Shown one piece after another: positions 1,378-50,209 of a stretch of 64,000 bases of DNA. The notes under the pieces were generated by a model. That model saw only the letters and a program-made list of their open reading frames with translations. It did no database searches and was not told where the DNA came from. The translations under genes were made by a program, and so were the position numbers. The stretch comes from Candidatus Adlerbacteria bacterium (GTDB lineage Bacteria > Patescibacteriota > Minisyncoccia > Phycocordibacterales > SBAW01). Each line of letters opens with the position of its first letter. The first letter of the stretch is position 1. The stretch spans positions 120,300-184,299 of the forward strand of contig JAQBRA010000004.1 in the NCBI GenBank assembly GCA_028286685.1, given 5' to 3'.

Positions 1378-1941
1378 ATGGATTCGCCTGCGCTCGTACT
1401 GCCCCCCTCGATCACGCTGGTCATCGCCCTCCTGGCAATCTTTCTCTCGTACCTGGTCGTCATCAAGTACACCGTGCGCAACAACTTTGCCCGTACCCGG
1501 CTTGGGATGACCTCGTTCTTTTTCTTTATCGTGGCAACGCTCTCCCTTTCCTTCTGGCAATACACGCTCCATACGCTCCCCTTTGCCGGGCCATTCTTTG
1601 CGCTCGGCGCCCTTATCGGCCACTTTGTCGGCGTGCGCGGCGCCGAGGAGCGCTTGAAGTCGGAAGGTCTCGCCCACTACCATGAGCACTTCGCCCACGT
1701 GCATGTGGGAGCGCTCAAGAACATGACTTGGTGGAGCGTCGTTAACTTCTACTCGGTCGCAGGAGCGCTCATGCTTATCAACTTGGTCGGCTTTAGTACC
1801 GTCATTGCCCGCAGCGAAGGGTTCGCTATTGCCACCAGCGCCGTGGGCGCATTCCTCCTGGGCACCATCGCACCCTACCTCGTTCACCTCTGGACTATCA
1901 GGGCGCAGCACCATCCCAACAGCACCACGAGCGACAGGTAA
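1378..1941 (+). CDS. Hypothetical polytopic membrane protein
   Basis: ATG at 1378 with several hydrophobic helices. It overlaps an antisense ORF 1333..1914, which I judge spurious. Confidence 0.45.
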   Translation: MDSPALVLPPSITLVIALLAIFLSYLVVIKYTVRNNFARTRLGMTSFFFFIVATLSLSFWQYTLHTLPFAGPFFALGALIGHFVGVRGAEERLKSEGLAHYHEHFAHVHVGALKNMTWWSVVNFYSVAGALMLINLVGFSTVIARSEGFAIATSAVGAFLLGTIAPYLVHLWTIRAQHHPNSTTSDR

Positions 1942-2588
1942 AACACCCAGCGCGCATATTTTTTCTGCTGTGCGCTGTAGCTGCCTTTCATAAACATCGG
2001 GATCTTTGCCGCGGCGTATTCTTCTCCCCTATATACGGCAATGGCTAGAAAGTGCGGGAGCTGCCAGAGGAATAAGAAAGCGAACATAAGCCATGCGGTG
2101 TAATCAATCACGCCCGCTGCGGCCGCATAGCCCACCAGGGGCGGCGTAGCGCCCGCTACAGCCCCTACAAAGAGGGCATAGGCGCTATGGTGCTTAAGAG
2201 GCGTATAGGCAAAGACGTACACTACAAAGCCAACCAGGGCCGCCAAGAGCACTGCGCCGTTAGTCGCATTCAGCAAAACCACGCCCAGCACAAGCAAGAC
2301 CGCGCTAAATATAAGCGCAGCCCGGGCAGAAATTCTCCCGCTCGGAAACGCGCGCTGCTTCGTGCGCTCCATGCGCGCGTCTATGTCGCGGTCGTAATAA
2401 TTATTAACAACGCACGCCGAGGCGATGACCAGCGCCAGGCCGCCAATCGCAGCGCCAAAGAGCATCCAGTTGATGCCGCTATGGCTGGCATAAATAAAAG
2501 CCGCCGCTGCCACCAGTATGTTGCCGTACACGATGCCGGGCTTGGTAAGCCGGTAGTACGTTTTAAGGGGGCCCTGGGTATCAGTCAT
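1884..2588 (-). CDS. cyoE: Protoheme IX farnesyltransferase (heme O synthase)
   Basis: Internal ATG at 2588 (MTDTQGPLKTYYRLTKPGIV..) overlaps the cyoD stop by 8 nt. UbiA-family polytopic protein, last gene of the cyo operon. Confidence 0.8.
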   Translation of the reverse strand: MTDTQGPLKTYYRLTKPGIVYGNILVAAAAFIYASHSGINWMLFGAAIGGLALVIASACVVNNYYDRDIDARMERTKQRAFPSGRISARAALIFSAVLLVLGVVLLNATNGAVLLAALVGFVVYVFAYTPLKHHSAYALFVGAVAGATPPLVGYAAAAGVIDYTAWLMFAFLFLWQLPHFLAIAVYRGEEYAAAKIPMFMKGSYSAQQKKYARWVFYLSLVVLLGWCCALIVQR

Positions 2589-2940
2589 TTGATGCTTCCG
2601 CACTGATAGTATTTTCAATAAACGGCAGCTGTGCTTGCTGCTCATGCCCCAGGTTCTGCATAATCCACAGCGTTCCTCCCACCAGTACCGCCGCAATAAA
2701 TACCGCAAAGCACAGCGCCATAACATTCCACCGCGGCTTTTCCTCATCGCCCACATGCAAAAAGAAATACAGCTGCACCAAAAGCTGGGTAAGCGCAAAG
2801 ATAACCAGTACCCAGGGCAGCTGGACATGCATTGAAGGACTGTGCTCTCCGGTTGTATGCAGCCACACGAACGCCGCAGGCACCAAAGTTAAGACCAGTG
2901 AGAGTGCAAATCCTATTATGTAGTGGGTTAGGGCGCGCAT
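2581..2940 (-). CDS. cyoD: Cytochrome o ubiquinol oxidase subunit IV
   Basis: 119 aa with 3 TM helices, positioned between cyoC and cyoE. Confidence 0.8.
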   Translation of the reverse strand: MRALTHYIIGFALSLVLTLVPAAFVWLHTTGEHSPSMHVQLPWVLVIFALTQLLVQLYFFLHVGDEEKPRWNVMALCFAVFIAAVLVGGTLWIMQNLGHEQQAQLPFIENTISAEASND

Positions 2941-3509
2941 TAGAGTGCTCCGAGCATATACACGATAGTAAAGATGAATATCCAGATGACGTCGAGGAAG
3001 TGCCAGAACAGCGCCAGGCAGGTCAGTTTGCGCAGCACGCCCTCAGTGAGGCCCTTAAAGGCGATGTGCGCCATAAGCACTACCATCCACAAGGACCCCA
3101 AGGCCACATGGAGCCCGTGCGTGCCCAACAGCGTAAAGAATGCGGAAAGGAACGCGCTCTTGTCGGGCCCTTGGCCCTCGCCAATGAGCGCAGCAAACTC
3201 ATGGACCTCCATCCCCAAGAAGCCAAGGCCCAAAGCCAGAGTTATAAGGAGCGCAGAAAGCGCCAGAGCGCGCTTGCCATGGCGCGCCGCCAAAAGCGCC
3301 AGGCCGATAGTAAAACTCGAGGCAAGCAGCAGCACCGACTCTACTGCTACAAACGGAATATCGACAATGTCTCCTATCCCGTAACCGCCAAATACCTGGC
3401 CCTGCAGCACTGCGTAGGTGGCAAAGAGCCCGGCAAACAGCACCGCATCGCTCATGAGATAGGCCCAGAAGCCGAAGGATACTTTGTCTGTAGTGTTGTG
3501 GTTGCTCAT
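2940..3509 (-). CDS. cyoC: Cytochrome o ubiquinol oxidase subunit III
   Basis: N-terminus [35 protein letters not shown] is typical of CyoC. Confidence 0.85.
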
Positions 3510-5419
3510 ACGGTTATTTTTTCCTCGATGTTCGTCTCAAACGACCGGGCAATAAGGCACGCGACGATCGCCGCTAGAGCAAGCGCCGCGAGCCACCAGA
3601 TGTGCCACACGGCCGCAAAGCCGAGCGCCAGGGCACATAGCGAAATAAGTACCCCCACAATAGTCTGCGTCGGCATTTCTATCTCGCCATGCGCCGGGCC
3701 TACCTCCATGCCGCCACCGTCCTCTTTATAGTTCCAGAACGCGTCGCGGCTATATATGTGCGGAATTGCGGCAAAGTTGTGCGCCGGAGGCGGCGAGGAC
3801 ACCGACCACTCCAGCGTGCGGCCGCCCCACGGGTCGTTGCCCGCCGGATTCTGCTTGCGGTCGCGGATGCTTACAAACAGCTGCAGGGCCTGCAGGAATA
3901 TTCCTGCGGCAATAATGCACAGCCCCACGGCCGCCACGATAAACAGCGGCTGCCACGAGGGATCGACCACATTAAGCCGGCGCGTGGCGCCCATGAGCCC
4001 CAGAGCATACAGCGGTACGAATGCGGTTAGGAATCCTATCAGCCAGCACCAGAACGCGTACTTGCCCAGGCGCTCGTTGAGCCTGAAGCCGAAGAGCTTG
4101 GGGAACCAGTAGGCAAAACCCGCAAAGAATCCGAACAGCACGCCGCCAATGATCATGTTGTGGAAGTGCGCCACCAAAAACAGCGAGTTGTGCACTTGAA
4201 AGTCGATGCCCGGAATAGACATCAAGACCCCGCTCATTCCACCGAGAATAAAGGTCGAGAGAAAGCCCATAAACCACAGCATCGGGGTCTCGAAGGTGAT
4301 GCGGCCGCGGAACATCGTAAAGAGCCAGTTGAACACCTTAACACCCGTCGGGATAGCAATGACCATGGTCATAATGCCGAAGAACGCGTTGACGTTGGCT
4401 GATGCGCCCATGGTAAAGAAGTGGTGCACCCATACCAAGAACGACAAGACCGCGATGCACATGGTCGCCACCACCATCGAGGTATAGCCAAAGAGCCTTT
4501 TGCGCGAGAATACCGGGACAATTTCGGAAAAGATGCCGAACGCCGGAAGTATCAGTATGTAGACCTCCGGGTGGCCCCACGCCCATATCAGGTTGACGTA
4601 CATCATGGCATTGCCGCCCAGCTCGGTCGTAAAGAAGTGCATGCCCAAGGTGCGATCTAGGCCCAAGAGCGCCAGAGTAACGGTGAGTATAGGGAAAGCA
4701 AAGACCACGAGGATCATCGAGGCCAGCGTGGTCCAGGCAAATATCGGCATGCGCATCATGGTCATGCCCGGCGCGCGCATTTTTATGATGGTCGCTATAA
4801 AGTTGATGCCGGCCAAAAGGGTGCCCACGCCCGCAATTTGCAGCGCCCATATGTAGTAGTCGACCCCCACCCCGGGGCTGTAGGCCAATTCCGAGAGCGG
4901 AGGGTATGCCAGCCAGCCGGTCGCGGCAAACTCCCCCACTACCAAAGAGAGGTTAATAAGCACCGCGCCCGCGACCGTAAGCCAGAACGAGAGCGAGTTA
5001 AGAAAGGGGTATGCCACGTCGCGCGCACCAATAAGTAGAGGGGTCGCCAGGTTTATAAGCGCAAACATAAACGGCATCGCCACAAAAAAGATCATGATGA
5101 CCCCGTGCGCGGTAAATATCTGGGCGTAATGGTCGGGGCTTAGGTAGCCCTCCGAGCCGGGCACCGCTATGGCCTGCTGCACGCGCATCATGGCAGCATC
5201 AACCGCTCCACGCAAAAGCATTACGCCCGCCAAAATAAAGTACATGACCGCGATCTTCTTGTGGTCTACGGTGGTCAGCCACTCGCGGTAAAACCACCCC
5301 CACAAACGGAAGTAGGTTAAAAGTGCCAGGGCACCCAATGCGCCGCCCACAATCATGAGCTGCGGGACCGTCTCAATGGGCCCGTGGAGGAATGCGCTTA
5401 AGGTAAGTTTTCCAAACAT
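3506..5419 (-). CDS. cyoB: Cytochrome o ubiquinol oxidase subunit I (heme-copper oxidase)
   Basis: 637 aa with N-terminus MFGKLTL...; carries heme-copper oxidase subunit I His ligands and the WFFGHPEVY-like motif WAWGHPEVY. Confidence 0.9.
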
Positions 5420-5421
5420 AG

Positions 5422-6225
5422 TTAGTGGGAGTGCCCCGTCGGATTGTGCGCGTCCATAAACTGCATAAGGACCGAATCAAACAAGCCGGGCGCTATGGCC
5501 GCATAAAACGTCTGTGGGACGCTAGAGCTCGGTTCTACCAATTCCTTATACTTCTCCCACGAGAGTGTCTCCGGAGAGGCCTTGATGCGGCCCACCCAGG
5601 CGTCAAACTCTTCGGGCGTTACGGCCCAAGCGGTAAACTTCATTGTAGCAAAGCCCTCGCCGCTGTAGTTGGCCGAGGCGCCCGCGTACGCGCCCGGCTC
5701 GGTGGCCATCAGATTAAGCGCGGTTACCATGCCAGTCATGGCGTATATCTGCCCGCCCAGCTGCGGTATCCAAAACGAGTTCATTGGCGCATCGGACGTA
5801 ATTCTAAACTCCACCGGCCTGTTTACCGGCATGTGCAGGTAGTTAACGGTCGCTATCCCCTGCTCTGGGTATATAAAGAGCCACTTCCAGTCCAGGGCCA
5901 CTACCTGGATTATCAGCGGGTCGCCGCCGGCCAGGGGTTTGGGCGGATGCAGCTCGTGCGTGCTGCCCCACGTAAGCGCGCCCAAGACCAGCACCACTTC
6001 TAAAGGGATAACCCACCACACCAGCTCCTCCATGCGGCCATGCTCCCAGTTGGGGCTGTATTTGGCTTTTTTGTTTGAGGCGCGGTACTTGTAGGCAAAG
6101 AAAAACAGCAGGAAGTAGACCGGGATGGCGACAATGAGCATGAAGCCCAGCGCCTGGAACATGAGGCCGCGCTCGGCGAGCGCTATGACGCCCTTGGGGT
6201 CTAGGACGGGGAACAACTCAAGCAT
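5422..6225 (-). CDS. cyoA: Cytochrome o ubiquinol oxidase subunit II
   Basis: 267 aa with two N-terminal TM helices and a cupredoxin-like C-terminus lacking the CuA ligands; first gene of the cyoABCDE block. Confidence 0.85.
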
Positions 6226-12080: not shown

Positions 12081-13334
12081 TTAAAGCAGGAGGCTCTTGC
12101 GAGTCTTTTTGCGATGATAGGAAATGGCAAAGCGGTGCGCCTCGGCGTTTGCCAGCAATATATCGCGCTCGCGGTCCTTTATGACGTCGCGGTCGCCTGC
12201 TATTGAGCGCGGCCGGTGCTTTTCGTCCTTAACGACGCCCACGACCGGGATCTTGATGCCGTACTGGTCCAGCACTTTCTGCGCGGCATTGATCTGGGCC
12301 TTGTGGCCGTCCACCACGATGAGCTTGGGCATAGGCCACTCGTCGTGCCCCAGGCGGCGCGACAACACCTCTTTAAGCGAGCCGGGGTCGTCCCCGCCCT
12401 TGGCCTCGCGCAGGATAAATTTGCGGTACTCCATTTTGTTGGGCAGGCCGCCCTCTACCACCGTCATGACGCCCACATGGCCCGAGCCGGCCAAGTGCGC
12501 GATATCGTACGCCTCGATGCGGCTGCCGCTCGCGGCATTACCGCTGCGGAATTCCTCTTTTATCAAAGACACGTCCTGGATGTGGGTCAGCGCAAAAAGC
12601 TGCTGGCGCAGGCGGGCAGCTTCCTCGAATTCCTCGTCTTTGGCAGCCCGCTTCATTTCCTTTTCCAAAGACTTAACCAAAACAGACTTCTTGCCCTGGA
12701 ACATCAAGACAATATGGCGGATCGTGCGGCGGTACTCGGCCTTATCCACTGCGCCGCTGCAAACGCCCGGACATAGGCCGATAGAAGCATCAAAACAGGG
12801 CTTGCAGACCTTCCCGGCCTTCTTGAGCTCCTCGCACGGCGTGCACTTGATGCGGTACGGGAATATCTTGCGCAGCAATTTCATGGCCTGCTGCAGCTGT
12901 ATGCCATGCGGGAACGGCCCGAAGGTGTGTGCACGGGTCTTTTCAGGGAATTCCGCTTCCAAATTCTTATTGCGCACCACTAAGACGCGCGGATAGTCCT
13001 CTTTGGTTATAACGACGTTATTAAAGCTCTTGTCGTCCTTAAGGTCGGTATTGTAGTAGGGCTTGTGGGTGCGAATAAGCGACGCTTCCAGCAGCAGCGC
13101 TTCTAAGACCGAGTCCACTGCGCGGAAATCTATAGAGGTCGCCTTCTCGAGCATCTCCACCAGCAAGGGTCCGCGGGTGTCTATAAGATCCTTGGCGAAG
13201 TAGCTGCGCACCCGGTCGCGCAGACTCGTGGCTTTGCCGATATAAAGCAGCTTCTTGTTGCGCCCCAAGAAGAAATAGACCCCCGGCGTGTCCGGAATTT
13301 TGCTGGCTTTTTTCTTATACTGCTCTAAATTCAT
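12081..13334 (-). CDS. uvrC: Excinuclease ABC subunit C (compact form; GIY-YIG, UvrBC-interaction and RNase H-like domains; no C-terminal HhH)
   Basis: N-terminal GIY-YIG motif PGVYFFLGRNKKLLYIGKATSLRDRV; 417 aa versus about 600 in the canonical protein. Confidence 0.85.
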   Translation of the reverse strand: MNLEQYKKKASKIPDTPGVYFFLGRNKKLLYIGKATSLRDRVRSYFAKDLIDTRGPLLVEMLEKATSIDFRAVDSVLEALLLEASLIRTHKPYYNTDLKDDKSFNNVVITKEDYPRVLVVRNKNLEAEFPEKTRAHTFGPFPHGIQLQQAMKLLRKIFPYRIKCTPCEELKKAGKVCKPCFDASIGLCPGVCSGAVDKAEYRRTIRHIVLMFQGKKSVLVKSLEKEMKRAAKDEEFEEAARLRQQLFALTHIQDVSLIKEEFRSGNAASGSRIEAYDIAHLAGSGHVGVMTVVEGGLPNKMEYRKFILREAKGGDDPGSLKEVLSRRLGHDEWPMPKLIVVDGHKAQINAAQKVLDQYGIKIPVVGVVKDEKHRPRSIAGDRDVIKDRERDILLANAEAHRFAISYHRKKTRKSLLL

Positions 13335-13397
13335 ATTGACATTGTATACTTACAGTGTTACATTGACAAGTAGTGAAGCAGTAGAGGGAGATGTTTT

Positions 13398-13577
13398 ATG
13401 GCGGAAGAAAAGCTCAAGACTGAACTGGTCAACACGCTCGACAACCTTGATGAAGATTCGCTCCTCACAAGAGATCAGCTCAAGGAGAATGTCGAAAAAC
13501 TCACCCCAGAGGCGGTGGAGAAAATCAGCAATGTACTGCAGCAGAGCGAAGGCATGCCAAAGAACAAAGAAAAATGA
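13398..13577 (+). CDS. Small acidic coiled-coil protein (59 aa), not present in the ORF track
   Basis: ATG at 13398 preceded by the SD GAGGGAG with 6-nt spacing. Encodes MAEEKLKTELVNTLDNLDEDSLL...KNKEK, ends in TGA and is followed by a strong terminator. Confidence 0.45.
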   Translation: MAEEKLKTELVNTLDNLDEDSLLTRDQLKENVEKLTPEAVEKISNVLQQSEGMPKNKEK

Positions 13578-13583
13578 CACAAA

Positions 13584-13617
13584 GGCCGGGAAGCTCCATG
13601 CTCTCCCGGCCTTTTTT
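13584..13617 (+). terminator. Intrinsic terminator, GGCCGGGAAGCTCCATGCTCTCCCGGCC plus TTTTTT
   Basis: 8-bp GC stem followed by a T-run directly after the small-protein stop; abuts the uvrA stop. Confidence 0.7.
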
Positions 13618-13619
13618 AT

Positions 13620-16220
13620 TTACCTGCCCTTCAATACCTTTTTGAGATACTTGCCGGTGTGCGAGTTTTTGTTATTGGCAACCTCCTCGGGCGTGCCTTT
13701 TGCAATCAGCTGGCCGCCGCCCTTCCCTCCTTCGGGGCCAAAGTCGAGCAAATAGTCGGACGCCTTGATGACATCCATGTTGTGCTCGATGAGCACCACC
13801 GAGTTGCCCGCGGCCACCAGCTTGTTAAGGATATCGATAAGCTTGCGCACGTCCTCGTAGTGGAGCCCGACCGTCGGCTCGTCCAGGAGATAAATGGTCT
13901 TTTGCAGGTGCGGGCGGTAAAGCTCCGAGGAAATCTTGACGCGCTGGGCCTCGCCGCCCGAAAGGGTCGTCGCGGACTGGCCGAGCTTGAGGTAGCCCAG
14001 GCCTACATCGTCCAAGGTCTTCAAGCGGTCGGAAATAGAAGGAATATCCTCGAAGAACTTCATCGCCTCCTCGATAGTCATTTCCAAGACGTCGTAGATG
14101 CTCTTTTTCTTGAATTTGACCTCCATGGTCTCCTTGGTAAAGCGCTTGCCGTTGCAGATGTCGCAGGTCACATATACCGTCGGCAAGAAGTGCATCTCCA
14201 CCGCAATGACGCCGTTGCCCTCGCAGGTCTCGCAGCGCCCGCCGCCCTTCTCCTGCTTTACGTTAAAGGAGAAGCGGTTCGCCTTCCAGCCGCGCGCGCG
14301 GGCCTCGCTGGTCTCGGCAAACAGCTCGCGGATAAAGGTAAAGGCGCCGGTGTAGGTTGCAGGGTTAGAGCGCGGGGTGCGGCCGATGGCCGACTGGTCG
14401 ATGAGTATCGCGCGGGAGAGATGCTCGGTGCCCTCGAAGCCCGCGGCGTTGTGCACCTGGTTTGAGCGGTAGCGCTTATCAAAGCGCGCCTTGAGGTTCT
14501 CGTGCACTATCTCGTAGAGGAAGGTCGACTTGCCCGAGCCCGAGACGCCGGTCACCGTTACCAGTCGGCCGAGCGGTATATCGACGGAGAGATTCTTGAT
14601 GTTAAATGCCTTGCCGCCTTTAACTTTAAGGAAGCCTTTATCCTTCTCGCGGCGCTCCTCGGGCAGCTCAATTACCGTCTCGCCGCGCAAGTAAGAAAGC
14701 GTTATCGAGCCGCTATCGTTCTTCTTGGCGGTCAGGAGCTTCTCGAGCCAGTCGGCCACCACCACGTTGCCGCCATGGACGCCAGCGCCCGGGCCGATGT
14801 CTACCAGGTAGTCTCCGGCGTAGATAGTGTCCTCATCGTGCTCAACGACAATAATAGTATTGCCCAGGTCGCGCAGGTTAAGCAGCGTCTTGATAAGGCG
14901 CTCGTTGTCGCGCTGGTGGAGGCCGATAGTCGGCTCATCGAGCACATACAAAGCGCCCACGAGGCCGGAGCCCAGCTGGCTCGCTAGGCGGATACGCTGC
15001 GCTTCCCCGCCCGAGAGCGTGTTGGCGCGGCGGTCGAGCGTCAGGTAATCAAGGCCCACATCGAGCATAAACTTCAGCCGCGCCGAAATTTCCTTGATGA
15101 CCGTTTTTGAAATTTCCTGGTCCTTTTTGGAGAGGTCGAGATTGTCGAAAAATTCGTACGCGTCTGCGATGGACGAATTGGTAATGTCCATGATGTTCTT
15201 GCGCACCGGATCCTTCTCCCGAGTATCTTCCAAGAAGACATTGAGCGCCTCGGGGCGCAGGCGCGCGCCATTGCAGACCGGGCACGGGTCGTCGCTGTAG
15301 ATATGCTTGGTGCCCAGGCCGTTGCAGGCCGGGCAGGCGCCGTACGGCGAGTTAAAGGAGAAGAGGCGTGGCTCTACCTCAGGGAAGGAAAATCCGTCGT
15401 AGGCGCACATGAACTTGGCCGATACCAGGCGCTCGCCGTGGGCGTCAACGACGCGCACCAAGCCCTCGGACTCCTGCAGCGCGCGCTCGACCGATTCGGA
15501 CAGGCGCTCGATAGCCGCCTTCTTGTCGGTTTTAAATTCGCTCACCAGTATTTCGTCCACCAAAGCATCGATATCGTGCTTCTTGTGGCGCGCCAGCTCT
15601 ACCCGCTCGCGCAGGTTGATTATCTTGCCGTCCACGCGGGCCTTTTCAAACCCTTTGCCGAGTAGGTCGTACAGCAGCTGGTAGTACTCGCCCTTGCGGC
15701 CGACCACCACCGGGGCGAAAATCGCTATCTTGTCGTCGTTAATATCGACACCCATGACTTTGCGCGCATTTTTAGGCGCCGCCTTGGTAACCCCTTCAAT
15801 AATGCTCTCGATAATTTCCTGGTTGCTGTGCTTTTTTATCTCGCGTCCGCAGATAAGGCAGTGCGGATGCCCGACGCGCGCGTAGAGGATGCGCAAGTAG
15901 TCATAGATTTCCGTAATAGTTGCAACCGTCGAGCGCGGATTGTTGGAGCGGCTCTTCTGGTCGATCGAGATAGCCGGGGAAAGGCCGGTTATCTCCTCGA
16001 CATCGGGCTTCTGCATCTGGCGGAGGAACTGGCGCGCGTACGCAGAAAGCGACTCGATATAGCGCCGCTGGCCTTCGGCAAAGATAGTATCGAACGCCAA
16101 GGACGATTTGCCCGAGCCCGAGAGGCCGGTAAAGACGACCATTTTGTCCCGCGGGATCTTAAGGTCGATGTTTTTAAGGTTGTGGGTCTTTGCCCCTTTG
16201 ATATGTATGAAATTTTCCAT
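13620..16220 (-). CDS. uvrA: Excinuclease ABC subunit A
   Basis: 866 aa; duplicated ABC ATPase modules with Walker A GLSGSGKSSL and GVSGSGKSTF, plus zinc-finger Cys clusters. Confidence 0.95.
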   Translation of the reverse strand: MENFIHIKGAKTHNLKNIDLKIPRDKMVVFTGLSGSGKSSLAFDTIFAEGQRRYIESLSAYARQFLRQMQKPDVEEITGLSPAISIDQKSRSNNPRSTVATITEIYDYLRILYARVGHPHCLICGREIKKHSNQEIIESIIEGVTKAAPKNARKVMGVDINDDKIAIFAPVVVGRKGEYYQLLYDLLGKGFEKARVDGKIINLRERVELARHKKHDIDALVDEILVSEFKTDKKAAIERLSESVERALQESEGLVRVVDAHGERLVSAKFMCAYDGFSFPEVEPRLFSFNSPYGACPACNGLGTKHIYSDDPCPVCNGARLRPEALNVFLEDTREKDPVRKNIMDITNSSIADAYEFFDNLDLSKKDQEISKTVIKEISARLKFMLDVGLDYLTLDRRANTLSGGEAQRIRLASQLGSGLVGALYVLDEPTIGLHQRDNERLIKTLLNLRDLGNTIIVVEHDEDTIYAGDYLVDIGPGAGVHGGNVVVADWLEKLLTAKKNDSGSITLSYLRGETVIELPEERREKDKGFLKVKGGKAFNIKNLSVDIPLGRLVTVTGVSGSGKSTFLYEIVHENLKARFDKRYRSNQVHNAAGFEGTEHLSRAILIDQSAIGRTPRSNPATYTGAFTFIRELFAETSEARARGWKANRFSFNVKQEKGGGRCETCEGNGVIAVEMHFLPTVYVTCDICNGKRFTKETMEVKFKKKSIYDVLEMTIEEAMKFFEDIPSISDRLKTLDDVGLGYLKLGQSATTLSGGEAQRVKISSELYRPHLQKTIYLLDEPTVGLHYEDVRKLIDILNKLVAAGNSVVLIEHNMDVIKASDYLLDFGPEGGKGGGQLIAKGTPEEVANNKNSHTGKYLKKVLKGR

Positions 16221-16375
16221 AGGTTTTATTGCTTTTGTAGCTTACCGTAGAGCTCCTAAGAGCGGTACACAAATAAGCCGGGGACGCACAACGCCCCCTT
16301 GCATAGTGCAGGGGGTGGCGTATGTGTATCCACACTCTACCATAACGGCACAAAAAATGGGACTATACTAGGCTC

Positions 16376-16564
16376 ATGAACAAAACATTCTTCATCAAGG
16401 TAGCGACCTGCATTTTTACCCTCGTAGGCTTGGTGCACTTGTATCGCGCGCTTAACGACCTGCCATTTGTCGTGGCAGGATGGGCCGTGCCAGTTGATTT
16501 GTCTTGGGCAGCGGGCGTCGTGCTGCTTTTGCTTGCATGGACCGGCTACCGCCACTGGAGATAA
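16376..16564 (+). CDS. Small hypothetical membrane protein (62 aa)
   Basis: Two hydrophobic helices, followed by a hairpin at 16600-16631. Confidence 0.3.
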   Translation: MNKTFFIKVATCIFTLVGLVHLYRALNDLPFVVAGWAVPVDLSWAAGVVLLLLAWTGYRHWR

Positions 16565-16626
16565 TAAATTAGGCAGCAAGAGAAATTAAAAGCGCCCGAC
16601 CGAAAGGAAGGGCGCTTTGTCGTTAG

Positions 16627-16713
16627 CTACCGCCTGGCGGTAGCGTCTCTTGTTGCGAGCGGAGCAAAAGTGAGAAACAGTAGCACCGCTGCTCCGAGAT
16701 ACACGGCCGTCAT
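16627..16713 (-). CDS. Candidate 28-aa hydrophobic micro-peptide (MTAVYLGAAVLLFLTFAPLATRDATARR)
   Basis: Strong SD AGGGGAGG 6 nt upstream of ATG 16713; minus-sense terminator hairpin (16600-16631) immediately downstream. Confidence 0.25.
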   Translation of the reverse strand: MTAVYLGAAVLLFLTFAPLATRDATARR

Positions 16714-16996
16714 TGAAACCTCCCCTGTTGCTGTGCCGCTTAAGCGTATCAGTACCCTGTCTTGCGTCCAGGAAAGTTATGCACCTTTCAGCGGATATAA
16801 AAAAGCCCCGGTGCTCTCAATCGTTAATTCATATCAAATGAAAAAACGACAAGCACTCGGGGCTCTTGCGCGGCGCGATTCGCACGCTGCGCACAGAAAC
16901 GGTAGCTCTTGGAAAGAACAAGTGAAGCGAAGTCGCACATTCCCAGCGGCACGGGGTGGTGGGGGGACAGGAACGCCGCGCCTCCGCTTCATTTTC

Positions 16997-17026
16997 TATA
17001 GTACTCCTTTCTTTGCTGTATGTCAA
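16997..17026 (-). promoter_or_regulatory. Sigma70-like promoter (TTGACA-17 nt-TACTAT) firing into the uvrB-uvrA intergenic region
   Basis: Minus-sense CTTGACATACAGCAAAGAAAGGAGTACTATAG starts just downstream of the uvrB stop. Confidence 0.45.
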
Positions 17027-17054
17027 GCAGTAGCACAAGAGTCCGCAAATCTCT

Positions 17055-19160
17055 TTATTTCCTAGGCTTTTTTGCCGCCTCTTTGGAATCGCGCTGGGCG
17101 CGCTTGACCTTGCCCGCCTCTTCCCCGCGCAGGGCCGAGCGCTTTGCAGGCGCGCCGTTAGTGATGGTGTACATCTCGTCGCGCAGTATCGCCGCGGTCT
17201 CAAAGTCGAGATTCTTGACCGCTTCGGCCATCTGCTCGCGCTTTTCGGCAATAAATTTGCGCGGGTCTTTCTTATACAGATCCTGGTCAACGTCCAGCAA
17301 TTGCTGCACGGCGCGGCCATGTTCCGTACGCAGCTCGTCGGTAATGTCCTTGATAGCCTTCTTGATAGTCGTGGGCGTGATGCCGTGCTTGGTGTTGTAG
17401 GCCACCTGTATCGCGCGGCGGCGGTTGGTCTCGCTAATGGCTTTCTTTAAGGACTCGGTTTCATTGTCGGCATACAAAATAACGCGGCCGCCCACATTGC
17501 GGGCCGCGCGGCCGATAGTCTGTATCAGCGAGGTCTCCGAGCGCAAAAAGCCCTCCTTGTCTGCGTCGAGTATGGCCACCAGCTCTACCTCCGGCAGGTC
17601 CAGGCCCTCGCGCAGCAGGTTAACGCCTACCAGTACGTCGTAAGTGCCCTTGCGCAGGTCGGTAAGGATCGTGATGCGGTCCAGGGTCTCGATGTCGCTA
17701 TGGAGGTAGGCTGCCTTGTAGCCGCGCTCCTTGAGGAACTCAGACAGGTCTTCGGACATTTTCTTGGTGAGGGTGGTAATAAGCACGCGCGCGCCGCGGT
17801 CTATGACTTTCGTCGCCTCATCCAAGACATCCTGCACCTGGCCGAGCGTGCTGCCGGTGCCGGTTACGGGGCGCACGACAATCTCCGGGTCGATAAGGCC
17901 GGTCGGGCGGATGATCTGCTCGACTACATTCTCGCCGCTTTTCTCTTTCTCGTATTTGCCGGGGGTGGCCGAGGTGTATATCACCTGCCCTACCCTTTCT
18001 TCAAACTCTTCGAACTTCAGGGGGCGGTTATCGATAGCGCTGGGCAAGCGGAAGCCGTAGTCGATAAGGTTTGTCTTGCGCGCGCGGTCGCCCTCGTACA
18101 TGCCGCCAATTTGCGAGACCGTTACGTGGCTCTCGTCGATAATAGTCAGAAAGTCGGGCGTGCCGTCCTTTTTGTGCGGGAAGTAGGCCAGCAAGGTGTA
18201 GGGCGGCTCGCCCGGCTTGCGACCGTCAAAGTGGCTCGAATAGTTCTCGATGCCGTTGCAGTAGCCCATCTCGCGGATGCGGGCCAGGTCGTAGTTGGTG
18301 CGGCGCTTCAGGCGCTCGGCCTCGAGCATCTTGCCCTGGCCCTCGAGCTTTGCCAGCTGGTCCTTAAGCTCGCTCTTGATGTGCTCGATTGCCTTCAGGC
18401 GCTCGTCCTCAGGGGTTACGTAGTGCTTGGCCGGAAATAAAAAGAGCGACGCGCCCGATTTGATCTCGCCGCGCGTGGTCGCATCTATAATGCGCACGTT
18501 GCCGATCTTATCGCCCTCGAAGTCCGCCTTGTATATCACCTTCTCGCCGGTGGGCATGATCTCTATAGAGTTGCCGAGCGCGCGGAACGTGCCCGGCTTG
18601 AGGTCGGCCGTGGTGCGCTCGAAGTAGATGTTTATCAGCTCGCGGATAAGCTCGGCCCGGGTCTTCTTGAGTCCGGCGCTAATTTCCAAGTGCACCTTGC
18701 GGTACTCATCCGGCGATCCTAGCGCGTAGATGCACGACACCGACGCCACAATAATGACGTCCTTGCGGGTAAGCAGGGCCTGGGTGCTGGCATGGCGCAG
18801 GCGGTCAATCTCCTCGTTGATCTGCGCCTCTTTCTCTATATAGGTGTCGCTGGTCGGGATGTAGGCCTCCGGCTGATAGTAGTCGTAGTAGGAAACAAAG
18901 TAGTGCACCGCCGCATCCGGAAAGAACTCGCGGTATTCCTGCGCCAGCTGCGCCGCCAGGGTCTTGTTGTGGGCAATGACGAGGGTCGGCTTGCCTATCT
19001 GCTCAATGACATTGGCGCCAGTAAAGGTCTTGCCCGAGCCAGTAACACCAAGCAGGGTCTGGTGCTTTTCTCCGCGCTTGATGCCGGCCACGAGGGATTC
19101 TATGGCCTTTGGCTGGTCGCCGGCAGGCTTGTGGGTAGATTTGATAGTAAAGACGGACAT
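17055..19160 (-). CDS. uvrB: Excinuclease ABC subunit B
   Basis: Likely start [20 protein letters not shown] at 19160. Helicase motifs GVTGSGKT and DESH; Lys-rich C-terminal tail. Confidence 0.95.
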
Positions 19161-19167
19161 ATAGACA

Positions 19168-19236
19168 CTATAACCGAGGATAGCGAGGAAACAATAAATC
19201 AAATTTATTGAATTCCGAGCGTCGCAGGGTATATGA
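19168..19236 (-). promoter_or_regulatory. Conserved upstream element copy A (uvrB leader/promoter), with internal hairpin CAATAAAT-CAA-ATTTATTG
   Basis: Shares CTATAACCGAGGATAGCGAGG and ATTCCGAGCG.CGCAGG.TATATG with the region upstream of tgt. Minus-sense TATAGT lies 6 nt before the uvrB ATG. Confidence 0.5.
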
Positions 19237-19276
19237 GACGTTTTACGTGCTCATATAGCAAATGCGGGCAAAAAAA

Positions 19277-19308
19277 GGCCGCCTGCGAGTTATGGGGTGC
19301 AAGCGGCC
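19277..19308 (-). terminator. Intrinsic terminator of tgt (hairpin GGCCGC...GCGGCC plus TTTTTTT in minus sense)
   Basis: Inverted repeat followed by a 7-nt T-run on the minus strand. Confidence 0.5.
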
Positions 19309-19353
19309 GCGGACCATTGCGGGCGGGGGCCCACGATCCGCACCGCAACCGTA

Positions 19354-20574
19354 TCATTTTGCCTGGTATTTTTCCAGGAAGCTGTCGCGATACTGCTCGA
19401 AGGTGCCGTCTAGAATACTCTCGCGGATCTTTTTCGTGAGCTGAGTTAAGAAGTAGATGTTGTGCTGCGAAGCCAGGACCAAGCCCAGCATTTCTTTGGT
19501 ACGGAAGAGGTGGTGCACGTAGGCGCGGCTGTAGTCGGTGCATGTCGGGCATTCGCAGCCCTCATCCAAGGGCCCCCAATCCTCCCGGTAAGCCGAGGCG
19601 GTAATCTGGTACTTCCCTGTTTTGGCATACACGCCGCCGGTGCGGCCGTTGCGCGTAGGCAAGACGCAGTCAAAGGTGTCGATGCCTGCAGCCACGCCAA
19701 TAAAAATATCCTCAGGCTCGCCGATGCCTAAAAGGTGGCGCGGCTTTTCTTTGGGCAGCTCAGCATTTACCTTCTCCAATATTCCCAATATGTCCCACTT
19801 GCTGAACGAGCCGCCGATGCCGTAGCCGTCAAAATCCATGCTTGCGAGCTCGCGCGCGCTTTCAAGCCGCAAATCCTCAAAGCGCCCGCCCTGCACGATG
19901 CCATAGAGGCCCTGTGCCTGGTTTGCTTTAATATTCTGGCGGTGCGCCTTAAGGCTGCGCAGCGCCCAGCGATGCGTGCGGTCCATCGCCTCTTTCTGGT
20001 ACTGATGCGGCTCGTTGGGCGCCGTGCATTCGTCGAAAGCGTAGATGATATCCGCGCCGAGCTTGTGCTGGATCTCAATGCTGCGCTCGGCCGTAAAGCG
20101 GTGCAGCGTGCCATCGACATGCGAGGTAAAGGAAACTCCTTCCTCGTCCACTATGGCCAGGCGGCCGTGGCTTGAGGCCAGCTCGGCGTCATAGACCGCA
20201 ATCGCGTCCTCCCGCGCCGCTTGCTCGGGCAGGAACTTGGATAGCTTGACCCCGAACGCCGCGCCCAGGGAAAATACCTGGAAGCCGCCCGAGTCGGTCA
20301 TGATCGGGCCTTTAAAATTCATAAACTTGTGTATGCCGCCCGCGCGGGCCACAAGATCCTCGCCGGGCGAGAGGTACAGGTGGTAGGTGTTGGCGATAAT
20401 CCCCTGTACGCCCAGCTTGCCCCAGTTAGCCTGGTCGACGCCCTTGGCGGTCGCCTTGGTAGCGACAATGGTAAAGGACGGCGTCTGAATGTCGCCGTGC
20501 GGGGTACTCAAAACTCCCGCCCTCGCCATGGAGTTCGGGAGTTCTTTCTCTATAGTGAAGTTAATGGGACGCAT
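19354..20574 (-). CDS. tgt: Queuine tRNA-ribosyltransferase
   Basis: 406 aa TIM-barrel tRNA-guanine transglycosylase with zinc-site motif CxCxxC...H (CECPTCTDYSRAYVHH). Confidence 0.9.
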   Translation of the reverse strand: MRPINFTIEKELPNSMARAGVLSTPHGDIQTPSFTIVATKATAKGVDQANWGKLGVQGIIANTYHLYLSPGEDLVARAGGIHKFMNFKGPIMTDSGGFQVFSLGAAFGVKLSKFLPEQAAREDAIAVYDAELASSHGRLAIVDEEGVSFTSHVDGTLHRFTAERSIEIQHKLGADIIYAFDECTAPNEPHQYQKEAMDRTHRWALRSLKAHRQNIKANQAQGLYGIVQGGRFEDLRLESARELASMDFDGYGIGGSFSKWDILGILEKVNAELPKEKPRHLLGIGEPEDIFIGVAAGIDTFDCVLPTRNGRTGGVYAKTGKYQITASAYREDWGPLDEGCECPTCTDYSRAYVHHLFRTKEMLGLVLASQHNIYFLTQLTKKIRESILDGTFEQYRDSFLEKYQAK

Positions 20575-20583
20575 GAATGATTA

Positions 20584-20647
20584 CTATAACCGAGGATAGC
20601 GAGGGGAGAAAGCTTGCTTTCTCATTCCGAGCGGCGCAGGTTATATG
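20584..20647 (-). promoter_or_regulatory. Conserved upstream element copy B (tgt leader/promoter), with internal hairpin GAGAAAGC-TT-GCTTTCTC
   Basis: Same flanking conserved blocks as copy A; the hairpin differs in sequence but keeps an 8-bp stem (covariation). Confidence 0.5.
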
Positions 20648-20665
20648 CTTGCATATATAAAAAAT

Positions 20666-20690
20666 GCGGGCCGCCCGATAGGGCGGCCCG
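20666..20690 (-). terminator. Intrinsic terminator (GGGCCGCCC-GATA-GGGCGGCCC plus TTTTTT in minus sense)
   Basis: Perfect 9-bp GC stem followed by a T-run, downstream of gene 20716..21096. Confidence 0.7.
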
Positions 20691-20715
20691 TTCTTGGAGG
20701 CGTTGAGCAAAAAGC

Positions 20716-21096
20716 TCAGTGCTCGTGCTGCAAACGAGCATGGAAGATAAGTGCGGCAGTGTCGCCATCGATTTCGTTGATGCCAACATTGCAGTCGCAG
20801 GCGAGCAGATGCACATCCGCATCAACCAGCGCCTCAATATCCAGCAGCCCGCCGATCGTTCCGTCGGTGGCAACGCCCGCCTCGCTCAGAGCGGCGGCGA
20901 TAGGTTCCAGGATCGTCCCTGCTATCGGCAAGGCTCGTACGTACGACTCGCCTTTTAATTCGATGTCGTGAAAGAGCCGGAATTTCCGGTCGGGATGCTC
21001 TTTGAAGAACTTCATCGCCGAGCGAAGCAGGTTGGCCCGCGACGGAATGGGAAGCGCGGCTGCCTCGAGAGCAGACACCTTCACTTGGTCGTTCAT
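20716..21096 (-). CDS. Hypothetical protein (126 aa)
   Basis: Clean ORF with a terminator; no confident motif. Confidence 0.45.
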   Translation of the reverse strand: MNDQVKVSALEAAALPIPSRANLLRSAMKFFKEHPDRKFRLFHDIELKGESYVRALPIAGTILEPIAAALSEAGVATDGTIGGLLDIEALVDADVHLLACDCNVGINEIDGDTAALIFHARLQHEH

Positions 21097-48300: not shown

Positions 48301-48368
48301 GGCCGGTTCTTATAAATTTTCATCCAAAGCATTCCTACTTAGAACTTTCCTTGCTCTTAAGAAGTAAC

Positions 48369-48398
48369 CCGCTGGGTGTATGGAACGATGTTGGAACC
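48369..48398. repeat. Array repeat copy 1: CGCTGGGTGTATGGAACGATGTTGGAACC
   Basis: One mismatch to the consensus. Confidence 0.9.
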
Positions 48399-48408
48399 TC
48401 CTTAAGTT

Positions 48409-48837
48409 CTATTTATTTGCATTGAACTCCACAATCCACTCAATACCGTATTTATCTCTAAACATACCGGCATATGTTCCCCAAGGACTTTCCCCGATTG
48501 CCCCTTCTACTTGTCCTCCAATAGAAAGACCATTAAATATTTTTTCCGCTTCTTCTTTGTTGTCTGCATTTAGATGGATTTTACTCCTATTTTCATTTTC
48601 ACTTACTTTTCCCATAACTTCAGGAACATCGTTTCCTATTAGCATATTTCCGCCGCCAATAGGCAAAGTAATCAGCATGATTTTGTTCTCCTCTATATCT
48701 CTAACCGGGAATTCAGGACTCGCAAGATCTTTGAAACGAATCACCTTTGTAAAATCTCCGCCAAAAACAGATTTATAAAAAGTAAACGCTTCTTCGGCAT
48801 TACCATTAAAATTAATCCAAGGGTTTATTGCTGTCAT
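48409..48837 (-). CDS. Cassette gene: VOC/PhnB-like glyoxalase-superfamily protein (paralogue class of 42599..43111)
   Basis: MTAINPWINFNGNAEEAFTFYKSVFGG. The -10 box TATAAT (48844-48849) lies 6 nt upstream of the ATG, suggesting a leaderless transcript. Confidence 0.7.
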   Translation of the reverse strand: MTAINPWINFNGNAEEAFTFYKSVFGGDFTKVIRFKDLASPEFPVRDIEENKIMLITLPIGGGNMLIGNDVPEVMGKVSENENRSKIHLNADNKEEAEKIFNGLSIGGQVEGAIGESPWGTYAGMFRDKYGIEWIVEFNANK

Positions 48838-48880
48838 AGTGAAATTATATACTTGAGACCTTGGTCACACAACATACTCT

Positions 48881-48970
48881 GAATTTGCTGGGTGCACGGG
48901 CGACCTGATTTTTAACGAACAGAGCGAGTATAAAAATGGAAGTACTCTTGTGGTAACGATGTTGGAACCA
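48881..48970. repeat. Array repeat copy 2, split at its centre: left half GAATTTGCTGGGTGCACGGG, then a 54-nt unrelated insert, then right half ACGATGTTGGAACC
   Basis: The two halves map exactly to positions 1-14 and 15-28 of the consensus. Confidence 0.8.
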
Positions 48971-49037
48971 TTGTAGCAAAAGAAGAAGCGGCTACCCCAT
49001 AGGATAGCCGCCTGCTGAAATGACCGGGGTCAGAGCC

Positions 49038-49619: not shown

Positions 49620-49646
49620 ATTACAACAAATTATCTAAAAAGTCGA

Positions 49647-49673
49647 GCTGGGTGTTTGGGACGATGTTGGAAT
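49647..49673. repeat. Array repeat copy 3: GCTGGGTGTTTGGGACGATGTTGGAATC
   Basis: Two mismatches to the consensus. Confidence 0.9.
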
Positions 49674-49675
49674 CT

Positions 49676-50074: not shown

Positions 50075-50100
50075 GCCGATACAGTATCACAAAAAGACTG

Positions 50101-50128: not shown

Positions 50129-50209
50129 ATTCTGACACATGAATATGGAAAAGAAAATGCCGCCCAAGTATAGCCGGGGCGGCTCGGTATCGTATAATTT
50201 TTAGGTCGA

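Follow-up and report, generated by a model that had tools for sequence, protein, structure and literature searches.

A small hairpin element of CPR bacteria, probably mobile, lies within the −10 boxes of uvrB and tgt in an Adlerbacteria genome

Correia elements are small non-autonomous insertions at TA that carry 26-bp conserved terminal inverted repeats and are present in hundreds of copies per genome. Elements of the IS200/IS605 type have left-end and right-end hairpins that resemble each other. CPR bacteria (Patescibacteria) account for a large share of bacterial diversity, and their non-coding and mobile DNA is, to our knowledge, almost unexplored. Here we analyse a repeat found upstream of both uvrB and tgt in a 64-kb stretch of Candidatus Adlerbacteria DNA (hereafter the window), which an earlier note on this DNA had interpreted as a common promoter-plus-operator architecture and possibly the site of an SOS-like repressor. 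That interpretation is mostly wrong. In our judgement the two copies are probably insertions of a small, non-coding, hairpin-forming mobile element that belongs to a family in CPR genomes and whose core is a folded single strand.

The repeat is present as two copies on the plus strand (19168-19235 and 20584-20647) that have common flanks and unrelated 8-bp hairpins, as had been described. The sequence CTATAACCGAGGATAGCGAGG is matched exactly at 19168-19188 and 20584-20604, and ATTCCGAGCGnCGCAGGnTATATG is matched at 19212-19235 and 20624-20647; with up to 3 mismatches tolerated these are the only 2 flank matches in the 64 kb (chance expectation 0; 0 in 100 shuffles), and a covariance-model search of the window found these two copies and none elsewhere. 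The inner hairpins are, as claimed, perfect 8-bp stems (19192-19199/19203-19210 and 20606-20613/20616-20623) with no sequence in common. What had been missed is that the two outer flanks form a stem of their own (P1: TATAACC/GGTTATA), that the repeated unit also includes another variable hairpin (P3; 19234-19253 and 20646-20653) with a further TATA after it, and that the likeness between the copies runs on to AAATGCGGGC, which is ancestral host sequence.

Copy 1, taken as the whole inserted unit of core plus P3, is 85 nt long and spans 19169-19253 of the plus strand or, equivalently because TATA flanks both ends, 19173-19257, limits that come from alignment with the empty site of a relative, L032. 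The 5′ strand of its P1, TATAACC (19169-19175), pairs with the 3′ strand GGGTATA (19227-19233) with one A.G mismatch, and covariation across the family supports this pairing. Between the two strands lie the conserved 5′ loop strand GAGGATAGCGAGG (19176-19188), the variable hairpin P2 (19189-19213, loop CAA) and the conserved 3′ loop strand TCCGAGCGTCGCA (19214-19226); across the loop strands a GCGAGG/CCGAGC pairing is predicted that consists of GC, CG, tandem G.A, GC and GC. P3 of this copy (TGAGACG-TTTTA-CGTGCTCA) can be extended into the TATA on either side, where it overlaps P1, and is followed at 19254-19257 by the second copy of TATA, a short target or core word that we call X. Copy 2 is 69 nt long and spans 20585-20653 of the same strand, equivalently 20589-20657. 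Its P1 strands, TATAACC (20585-20591) and GGTTATA (20639-20645), pair perfectly and enclose GAGGATAGCGAGG (20592-20604), a P2 hairpin with a C(TT)G loop (20605-20625) and the 3′ loop strand TCCGAGCGGCGCA (20626-20638), while its short P3 (TGC-TT-GCA) is lengthened by the flanking TATA/TATA and followed by the second X at 20654-20657. Since the two copies have neither P2 nor P3 sequence in common, copy 2 did not arise by simple recent copying of copy 1.

Both host genes are encoded on the minus strand, uvrB at 17055-19160 (701 aa from the ATG at 19160; its ortholog carries UvrB Pfam domains) and tgt at 19354-20574 (406 aa, queuine tRNA-ribosyltransferase). The sequence TATAGT forms a −10-like box 6 nt before the uvrB ATG (box 19167-19172, ATG 19160-19158), whose TATA doubles as the end of P1, and another 8 nt before the tgt ATG (box 20583-20588, ATG 20574-20572). 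The suggestion that these are leaderless promoters is plausible: a −10-like box stands 5-9 nt before the start in 18 of 57 window genes, the uvrB box is ancestral in L032 and the tgt box in L032, L033 and L041, and these three relatives have TATAGT, 8 nt and a start in the absence of the element. The features of a leaderless sigma-70-type promoter are thus found together, namely a TANNNT box at the right distance that recurs across genes and is kept in orthologs, and they lend sequence-level support to widespread leaderless, −10-only promoters in this lineage. A promoter scan of 19000-20800 returned nothing useful on either strand. Two minus-strand terminators are host sequence: a terminator-like hairpin with T7 after tgt (19270-19308), which lies outside the element and has diverged between the window and L041, and the terminator of the gene upstream of tgt (20667-20690), with 10 G-C pairs and a T run.

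Comparison of orthologous upstream regions indicated that the element is a newcomer at both promoters. In relatives with the same tgt-uvrB synteny (L032, L033/L034 and L035) it is absent from the tgt and the uvrB promoter, the relatives that lack it there having 90, 89 and 77% Tgt identity, and in L041 (94% Tgt identity) the tgt site is empty and the uvrB site filled. Because the 70-nt sequence is missing from orthologous promoters, it is an insertion and not a conserved regulatory module. Alignment of filled with empty sites shows that the two copies are evidently separate insertions, of 85 and 69 nt, within the TATA|GT (gene sense) of what appear to be ancestral leaderless promoters, and that they differ in age, the uvrB copy being common to the window and L041 and the tgt copy being present in the window genome only. 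With TATA on both sides of each insert, a complete TATAGT is regenerated beside the gene at the original 6-8 nt from the ATG. Identity between the window and L041 is 117/120 over the element region, compared with ~81% in the tgt coding sequence, 60-68% in the terminator spacer and ~87% in the uvrB coding sequence. A second empty/filled pair is provided by L013, in which the element lies between rplB and rpsS with TTATT on both sides of the insert, and L040, which is empty there; a small insertion at the rplB-rpsS site of L036/L038 was no more similar to the family than shuffled controls were. The flanking word is TATA (4 nt) at the window copies and TTATT (5 nt, possibly 6) in another subfamily, 8/8 of whose members with both ends readable are flanked by it, and no duplication is seen in L001. 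At each of three empty sites X is present just once, and the ancestral promoter or operon spacer is intact. Judged from these three empty/filled comparisons, candidate identities for X are a target-site duplication, a recombination core or a part of the element.

These observations bear directly on the proposed operator. A promoter-plus-operator unit, with a cruciform or RNA hairpin through which an SOS-like repressor co-regulates uvrB and tgt, would fit the overlap of the element with the −10 box of both genes, and uvrB is a classic damage-inducible gene, with uvrC, uvrA and uvrB clustered nearby. We give this reading almost no credence. Close relatives lack the element at the orthologous promoters, neither uvrA (13620-16220) nor uvrC (12081-13334) is preceded by a copy that the covariance model recognises, tgt has no link to DNA damage and the structure favours the strand antisense to both genes; in addition, family members lie beside unrelated genes in every orientation, which argues against a damage regulon. 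An operator of the SOS/LexA type was rejected for its absence before other damage genes in the window and its lack of conservation at orthologous promoters.

A cis-acting 5′ leader on the gene-sense strand, that is, a riboswitch or translational element whose transcription would be driven by the old promoter of the distal junction, would explain why 5-30 nt separate the end of the element from a start codon in both window copies and in L013, L022, L024 and L030, and the overlap of 4-5 nt between P1 and P3 is like that of an aptamer and its expression platform. Against it, the distal junction has lost the final T of the −10 box (TATATG/TATATA) and the proximal box is intact, the downstream genes are mutually unrelated, many copies lie between convergent genes, the wobble pairs and the kinds of loop speak for the other strand, and there is no Shine-Dalgarno sequence to sequester. 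We therefore regard a leader as very improbable. A riboswitch with a terminator platform on the plus strand was also considered and rejected, there being no consistent downstream gene and the U-run being confounded with X = TTATT.

Beyond the window, we collected 23 distinct copies of the family from CPR genomes and metagenomes, among them Peribacteria, Saccharibacteria, Falkowbacteria and others. Elements are 65-110 nt long, solitary, and usually present in 1-2 copies per genome; the exact pattern was matched in 7 CPR genomes among 185,579 species representatives. Gene context differs at almost every locus, with tRNAs, ribosomal protein genes, pilM, comF and hypothetical genes as neighbours, and in the plus sense roughly half of the loci are followed by a convergent gene and the others by genes with no functional relation to one another. 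The core of some lineages sits within a scaffold that resembles a tRNA minihelix and adjoins tRNA genes: in L001, L004, L006, L011 and L021 it is surrounded by co-oriented tRNA genes and copies of tRNA 3′ ends, and the extended forms retain only a T-stem and an acceptor-like minihelix. A half-site search for solo conserved strands across all loci examined gave chance-like matches only. The near-identical elements of L016 and L022 lie in unrelated flanks, a sign of recent mobility. At the orthologous pairs L026/L030, L015/L017 and L004/L021, the two loop strands are identical and the stems drift. That loop strands are kept while stems are replaced implies selection that would act on resident copies.

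The same family data can be set against a vertically inherited, non-mobile small RNA gene that acts in trans and whose "empty" sites are precise deletions. Such a gene would agree with 1-2 copies per genome, with conserved loops and covarying stems, with the co-orientation with tRNA genes and with the hairpin and U-run at the 3′ end of several loci. It is hard to reconcile with three empty sites that keep a single X and an intact ancestral promoter or spacer, with near-identity in unrelated flanks, with so sporadic a distribution and with a context that changes at almost every locus, and the U-runs are confounded with X = TTATT. We consider inheritance without mobility very improbable.

The layout of the family is X - P1core - GAGGAUAGCGAGG - P2 - (U)UCCGAGCGNCGCA - P1core′ - X′ - P3 - X, where X is a short A/T-rich word (TATA in the window, TTATT in the other subfamily) and X′ is complementary to X. 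P1 and P2 covary, P2 and P3 are hypervariable, and GAGGAUAGCGAGG and UCCGAGCGNCGCA are near-invariant, the 5′ loop strand being the same in 23/23 members, a near-invariance that is partly ascertainment because the scans used to collect the family demanded exact matches to parts of the loop strands. P1 in most members reads CTGCC/GGCAG, TTGCC/GGCGA, CTGTC/GACAG and so on, and L004 has an extra hairpin inserted within the 3′ loop strand. Among 22 members, 93.4% of cells are paired and both sides change in 10 of 16 pairs, counts taken from an alignment that had been adjusted to the model structure; none of 500 shuffles scores as high, and slid controls fall to 32-47% paired. A structure-preserving hairpin, as the earlier note had it, is thus borne out. 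Its claim of compensatory change is upheld by covariation at the level of the family and not by the two window hairpins, which are too different to be stepwise variants of each other.

Several features bear on which strand is folded. All 23 copies fold better in the plus sense, as do 19 versus 3 when P2 is taken alone, and under strand-symmetric scoring P2 contains 14 G.T against 5 A.C pairs and has CTTG loops seven times and a CAAG loop once. Wobble pairs and CUUG/GNRA loops therefore favour the strand antisense to uvrB and tgt, the plus strand of the window. Two considerations weigh on the other side: the sole substitution between the window and L041 is A.C on the plus strand and G.U on the minus strand, which counts against a plus-strand fold, and template switching on DNA is another way to keep palindromes perfect, with no selection on RNA, which counts against an RNA reading.

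For the probable mobile element, we envisage that the core works as a folded plus strand, antisense to uvrB and tgt, with the internal loop and its predicted tandem G.A as the functional module. The element would insert site-specifically, beside a word X matched by the internal X′, and the enzyme would act in trans. Any effect on uvrB and tgt would be a by-product in which the −10 box is rebuilt and the sequence upstream of the box replaced. As to what the fold is for, we lean slightly towards a small structured RNA carried by the element over a single-stranded DNA recognition hairpin of the IS200/IS605 or REP type.

A pure single-stranded DNA transposable element with no RNA function, like an IS200/IS605-derived PATE or a REP/REPIN, would use the hairpins as cis sites for a HUH-type tyrosine transposase on one strand, with X′ guiding pairing to X. 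This would suit the asymmetric insertion ends, which have no terminal inverted repeat because P3 lies outside P1, as well as the subterminal hairpins, the perfect palindromes, the strand-specific wobble pairs and a flanking word that is 4 or 5 nt long by subfamily and whose complement lies inside the element, adjacent to the foot of P3; no plus-strand promoter is visible in the window. We nevertheless think it unlikely, if a serious contender. The two hairpins of one element are unlike, contrary to IS200/IS605, there are only 1-2 copies per genome, loop strands are kept at orthologous loci while stems are replaced, the tRNA-minihelix-like scaffolds bracketed by terminators resemble transcription units, and no Y1 transposase or RAYT gene is found near any copy in the window or the neighbours scanned.

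Alternatively, the core may represent a new class of functional RNA on a CPR mobile element, defined in our model by a 7x6 internal loop with predicted tandem G.A, free P1 and P2 and an optional third stem. This more specific proposal is tentative and rather doubtful. Candidate activities are those of a self-cleaving or self-ligating ribozyme or of a protein- or ligand-binding module, grafting into the T-loop of a tRNA minihelix (in some lineages) could borrow tRNA processing and stability, and the RNA could join in site-specific insertion through X′-X pairing. Since no convincing plus-strand promoter precedes either window copy, by promoter scan or by direct reading, expression of RNA from these copies is only putative.

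The family is apparently undescribed. Searches of the window and of 20+ loci against Rfam 15 left the element unmatched, both at gathering thresholds and at E<=10/E<=1, no match turned up in viral contigs, GenBank phages or PLSDB plasmids, and literature searches for the conserved 13-mers (both strands, RNA and DNA spelling) and for CPR structured RNA, MITE, IS200 or REPIN found no relevant paper. No transposase, integrase or reverse-transcriptase domain occurs in ~50 ORFs of the window or in 10 genes that neighbour other copies. With respect to known RNAs, ARAGORN and the Rfam tRNA model call only the flanking bona fide tRNAs, which removes tRNA and tmRNA; tmRNA, SRP RNA, RNase P RNA, 6S RNA, Y RNA, the K-turn and ssoA CS-6 were rejected on negative ARAGORN/Rfam results and misfitting topology, having been prompted by what we take to be resemblances (GGGGnUGA...GGUUCGAC-like 5′ ends, UCCGAG and TAGCGA). 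A DDE-type MITE (e.g. Tc1/IS630-derived, or Correia) was rejected because the insert extends from P1 past P3 and inverted repeats are lacking at its two ends. Integron attC sites were set aside as well: the RYYYAAC ... GTTRRRY boxes are lacking in most members, and the copies are solitary, with no cassette arrays.

The element demonstrably moves. Its loop strands are unchanged from Peribacteria to Saccharibacteria while the stems are free to vary, and insertion is precise enough to split a −10 box and rebuild it. If the core acts as RNA, it would add a new class to the structured RNAs, and perhaps to the ribozymes; a single-stranded DNA site would point to an unrecognised transposition system in organisms thought poor in mobile elements. 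For annotation, the case is a warning that a repeat common to two promoters can be a promoter parasite and not a regulator.

Among described systems, the Correia elements (NEMIS) of Neisseria are like the CPR element in being ~100-nt non-coding palindromic intergenic insertions with a TA-containing word on both sides, in often landing in or creating −10 boxes and adjoining gene starts, and in forming hairpins when single-stranded. Unlike them, the CPR element has asymmetric termini, with P3 outside P1, its conserved part is an internal loop and not the ends, and it occurs at 1-2 copies per genome in a family that spans very distant CPR lineages. The features of the CPR element are also compatible with those of IS200/IS605 ends, PATE and REP/REPIN-RAYT systems, which have strand-specific subterminal hairpins and no terminal inverted repeats, persist for long periods and insert next to a defined word of 4-5 nt that can pair with an internal "guide" at the foot of a hairpin; in contrast to these, the CPR element has two dissimilar hairpins, a guide of different geometry whose position is not that of IS608, a very low copy number and a large invariant internal loop. 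The attC sites of integrons, too, are active as a folded single strand, with structure conserved and stem sequence not, a centre that is left unpaired and a terminal structure that varies widely in length, although the CPR element has no integron integrase context and lies outside cassette arrays. Finally, while it has no Rfam 15 match at E<=10 and no consistent downstream gene, the element is similar to riboswitch aptamers and to self-cleaving ribozymes such as twister-sister, pistol and hatchet: nucleotides at the junction or in the loop are invariant, the stems covary freely, further stems are optional (as in L004), the distribution is sporadic and the genetic setting varies.

The 21-mer CTATAACCGAGGATAGCGAGG occurs exactly twice in the window, at 19168-19188 upstream of uvrB and at 20584-20604 upstream of tgt, and so does ATTCCGAGCGnCGCAGGnTATATG (19212-19235 and 20624-20647); neither conserved block has a further match in the 64 kb with three mismatches allowed, or any in 100 shuffles. 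Between the blocks each copy carries a perfect 8-bp hairpin (P2), the two hairpin sequences having nothing in common. These matches bear out an earlier note, made from the sequence alone, that described a shared element with conserved flanks and divergent hairpins. What that description overlooked is that the outer flanks are complementary and form an outer stem, P1 (TATAACC/GGTTATA), that the repeated unit (19169-19253, 85 nt, and 20585-20653, 69 nt) also takes in a second variable hairpin (P3) and then another TATA, and that the likeness between the copies runs on past the unit into host sequence. The further copies of this architecture for which the note proposed a search did not appear in the window, where a covariance-model search returned the uvrB and tgt copies only. 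In gene (minus) sense, TATAGT closes both copies, 6 nt from the uvrB ATG (19160) and 8 nt from the tgt ATG (20574).

A protein named from Candidatus Adlerbacteria matches the window Tgt at 100% identity, and the gene order CAP, FKBP, small ORF, tgt, uvrB ... uvrA recurs in relatives at the loci L032 (Tgt 90% identical), L033/L034 (89%) and L035 (77%), in none of which a model search detected the element. L032 reads ...GCATTTGCTATAGTGTCTCTACATG before uvrB and ...CTTTGTATAGTGGGCTTTCGTG before tgt, whereas the window reads GCATTTGCTATA[85 nt]GTGTCTATATG and TTTTTTATA[69 nt]GTAATCATTCATG, each inserted block ending in TATA. As judged from these alignments, both copies are insertions that interrupt an ancestral TATAGT box (TATA|GT) and have TATA on either side; the two are oriented alike. 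At L041 (Tgt 94%) the tgt site is empty and the uvrB site is filled with the same copy, alike in P2 and P3 and with one substitution in 85 nt. Because this relative has only the uvrB copy and the others have neither, the order of events reads as an ancestor without a copy, a first insertion at uvrB and a second at tgt. Window and L041 are identical at 117/120 positions of the element region, compared with ~81% in the tgt coding sequence, 60-68% in the terminator spacer and ~87% in the uvrB coding sequence, and differences return within ~10 nt on each side. This near-identity is consistent either with recent site-specific acquisition in both lineages or with strong constraint; a homologous-recombination tract does not fit.

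A TATAAT/TATAGT/TACAAT-type box lies 5-9 nt before the start codon, with no visible Shine-Dalgarno, in 18 of the 57 predicted window genes (on the minus strand, for example, at 54053, 48849, 45043, 43123, 30889, 29874, 13346 and 6237), a frequency that points to abundant leaderless mRNAs in this Adlerbacteria genome, where leaderless, -10-driven transcription is probably the rule. In uvrC, a TACAAT box stands 6 nt before the ATG. The TATA of such boxes would be the commonest intergenic TATA and hence a target at hand. Since TATA flanks the insert on each side, TATAGT is restored at the gene-proximal junction, as far from the start codon as it was originally, and the distal junction reads TATATG or TATATA, without the final T. 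With the box so rebuilt, uvrB and tgt most likely keep leaderless promoters within a new upstream context (...CCTCGGT), and the inference in the earlier note that both mRNAs are leaderless appears to be right. The companion proposal, a shared operator that might bind an SOS-like repressor, fares differently: both sites are empty in L032, L033/L034 and L035, as is the tgt site in L041, and the 'shared operator' would be a parasite rather than a regulator. Contradicted by specific results, the SOS-operator model is the least probable account we considered.

Scanning one genome per species with an exact pattern gave seven true matches, all in CPR MAGs (Peribacteria, Saccharibacteria, Falkowbacteria, 'Patescibacteria group', an unclassified bin and, with two matches, one MAG labelled Gammaproteobacteria). 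Five other matches, in coding DNA, were set aside as chance. A shifted pattern, run against metagenomes, contributed 19 more loci, and the two scans together yield 23 distinct copies, a small family collected by exact-match seeds. Read on the strand corresponding to window plus, every copy consists of the P1 5' strand, GAGGAUAGCGAGG, the P2 hairpin, (U)UCCGAGCGNCGCA and the P1 3' strand, with P2 spanning 8-20 bp of unrelated sequence. The invariance of the loop strands is partly ascertainment, each scan having required exact matches to portions of both; conservation beyond the required positions comprises CGnCGCAGG in the genome matches and a leading GAG in the metagenome matches. RNAalifold paired GC/GC and GG/CC around GA/GA, which we infer to be tandem G.A, leaving a predicted 7 x 6 internal loop. 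Across 22 members, in an alignment fitted to the model structure, 93.4% of cells are paired and both sides vary in 10 of 16 pairs; the covariation score was reached by 0 of 500 shuffles, and pairing falls to 32-47% once partners are slid.

The L013 copy occupies the rplB-rpsS spacer and runs antisense to the operon. The spacer is uninterrupted in L040 (86% L2 identity), reading AAAAATAA|ACAATAAATATG, and at this point L013 holds an insertion of ~108 nt with TTATT (+ sense) on either side. This very position is occupied in two relatives of L013, L036 and L038, by a different insertion, a hairpin of ~68 nt (2302-2369 in both) that is flanked by AATAA-containing repeats and has no significant similarity to the element family; the rplB-rpsS spacer is therefore an insertion hotspot. 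In the TTATTGCC subfamily, TTATT stands 5' of P1 and immediately after P3 in 8/8 members with readable ends, and L016 and L022 have almost identical elements (one P2 difference) in unrelated flanks. In general, insertions are arranged as host-X-[P1core, loop strand, P2, loop strand, P1core', X', P3]-X-host, where X is a short A/T-rich word and X' its complement. X' can extend P1 by pairing with the 5' X, or P3 by pairing with the 3' X. The two ends of the inserted block do not form inverted repeats. Mobility, with empty/filled comparisons totalling three, appears to be general in the family. A small RNA gene that does not move is contradicted by specific results and seems improbable. Resident copies are constrained over long periods, because the orthologous pairs L026/L030, L015/L017 and L004/L021 keep identical loop strands while P1, P2 and P3 are altered or replaced.

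The plus sense folds more stably than its complement in 23/23 copies (mean difference 5.3 kcal/mol), and P2 alone favours plus in 19 copies and minus in 3. Under a strand-symmetric pairing score, the P2 stems contain 14 G.T and 5 A.C pairs, and the terminal loops in plus sense include CTTG seven times, CAAG once and several GNRA/GNNA. Three substitutions between L026 and L030 leave the latter with P1 pairs U.G, G.U and U.G on the plus sense, the same changes being three A.C mismatches on the opposite strand; L015 and L017 differ by G.U to A-U and G.U to G-C changes. As a counter-example, the sole difference between the window and L041 elements is wobble-compatible on the minus strand only. These biases in stability, wobble pairs and loops point to the strand antisense to uvrB and tgt as the folded form, equally compatibly with RNA and with single-stranded DNA. 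A gene-sense leader, likewise contradicted by specific results, is about as improbable as an immobile RNA gene, or slightly more so.

At five loci (L001 6100-6260, L004 3080-3365, L006 6700-6990, L011 3600-3880 and L021 380-625) the two halves of a tRNA T arm flank the core plus P3. In its T-stem and acceptor 3' strand, this scaffold is identical to the adjoining tRNA-Val or tRNA-Ser(GCU) gene. L001 reads ...CAGAGGTTCGA[core+P3]ATCCTCTAGAACCCACCA, matching the 3' end of a tRNA-Val gene ~90 nt upstream, and the ends of L004, L021 and L006 resemble the adjoining tRNA-Ser(GCU). The 5' part of the scaffold is conserved as (A)UGAGAA-hairpin-GUUCGMA, and the predicted fold is a four-way junction, closed in L001, L021 and L004 by an acceptor-plus-T-stem minihelix. 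L004 has an extra hairpin within its 3' loop strand; a mini-hairpin (~CCTGCCGGTAGGCAGG) recurs three times in this element (~3100-3260, minus), at the P2 apex, in the 3' loop strand insert and in the tRNA-like tail, which suggests a second, still smaller proliferating palindrome. Bracketed by bidirectional terminator-like hairpins, the tRNA-linked forms look like transcription units; alternatively, they could be remnants of integration into tRNA genes.

Neighbouring genes differ at nearly every locus and take all orientations (convergent, divergent, co-directional sense and antisense). A Pfam scan of ten neighbours found only an NYN domain, a P-loop NTPase and, in the window, FKBP. In L004 (2459-3019) and L006 (6159-6686) a gene with an NYN domain (PIN-like RNase) is convergent with the element at a distance of 130-190 nt, and in L003 (1097-1780) such a gene is 1.7 kb away; this proximity may be a coincidence of synteny. 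L017 has, between tRNA-Asn and the element, an inserted 81-aa GIY-YIG ORF (163-408) that the orthologous L015 lacks. In the window, uvrC, uvrA, uvrB and tgt stand in a row, with the element at uvrB and tgt only; among uvrC, uvrA and uvrB, on one strand within 7 kb (12081-19160), uvrB alone carries it. The ~50 window ORFs examined include no transposase, integrase or reverse transcriptase. They do include UbiA prenyltransferase and haem-copper oxidase subunits I (COX1, E 3e-149) and II at 1884-6225, respiratory oxidases being reportedly absent from the CPR group ancestrally (PMC7507113). A 530-aa ORF (51950-53542, minus) with five to six tandem 153-nt repeats (52475-53397) ends in a peptidoglycan-binding domain and encodes a repetitive surface protein. 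The surrounding low-GC (43-46%) stretch, 48365-54122, holds nine plus-strand copies of the 28-nt motif GCTGGGTGTATGGGACGATGTTGGAACC (48365, 49641, 50095, 50680, 51102, 51402, 51859, 53612 and 54084). Read in gene sense (GGTTCCAACATCGTCCCATACACCCAGC), at least one copy immediately precedes the -10-like box and ATG of a small gene (51435-51845). The motif resembles an activator or promoter-upstream site common to an island of small genes, among them a barstar homolog.

Rfam 15 gave no match on the element at gathering thresholds, or relaxed to E<=10 (window) or E<=1 (nine other loci); ARAGORN found normal tRNAs only, none on the element; viral contigs, phage records and plasmids gave no element match; and none of the papers searched contains its 13-mers. 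The reading we moderately favour is a small mobile element, site-specific in its insertion, that would work as a folded single strand with the conserved internal loop as its functional module. On this reading, RNA and a single-stranded DNA recognition hairpin are almost evenly placed, and we lean slightly towards RNA, mainly because the tRNA-linked forms resemble transcription units. The main rival, a purely single-stranded DNA, HUH-type element (IS200/IS605- or REP-like), is possible though rather unlikely: it accounts for the asymmetric ends, for strand specificity and for pairing between X and X', but not for hairpins that are unlike each other, the small number of copies, the constraint seen in resident copies or the tRNA-like scaffolds. 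Small palindromic insertions are a kind already known from Correia, REP/REPIN, RPE and PATE; the CPR element differs from these in conserving its internal loop instead of its ends, in its copy number and phylogenetic spread, and in its tRNA-minihelix variants.
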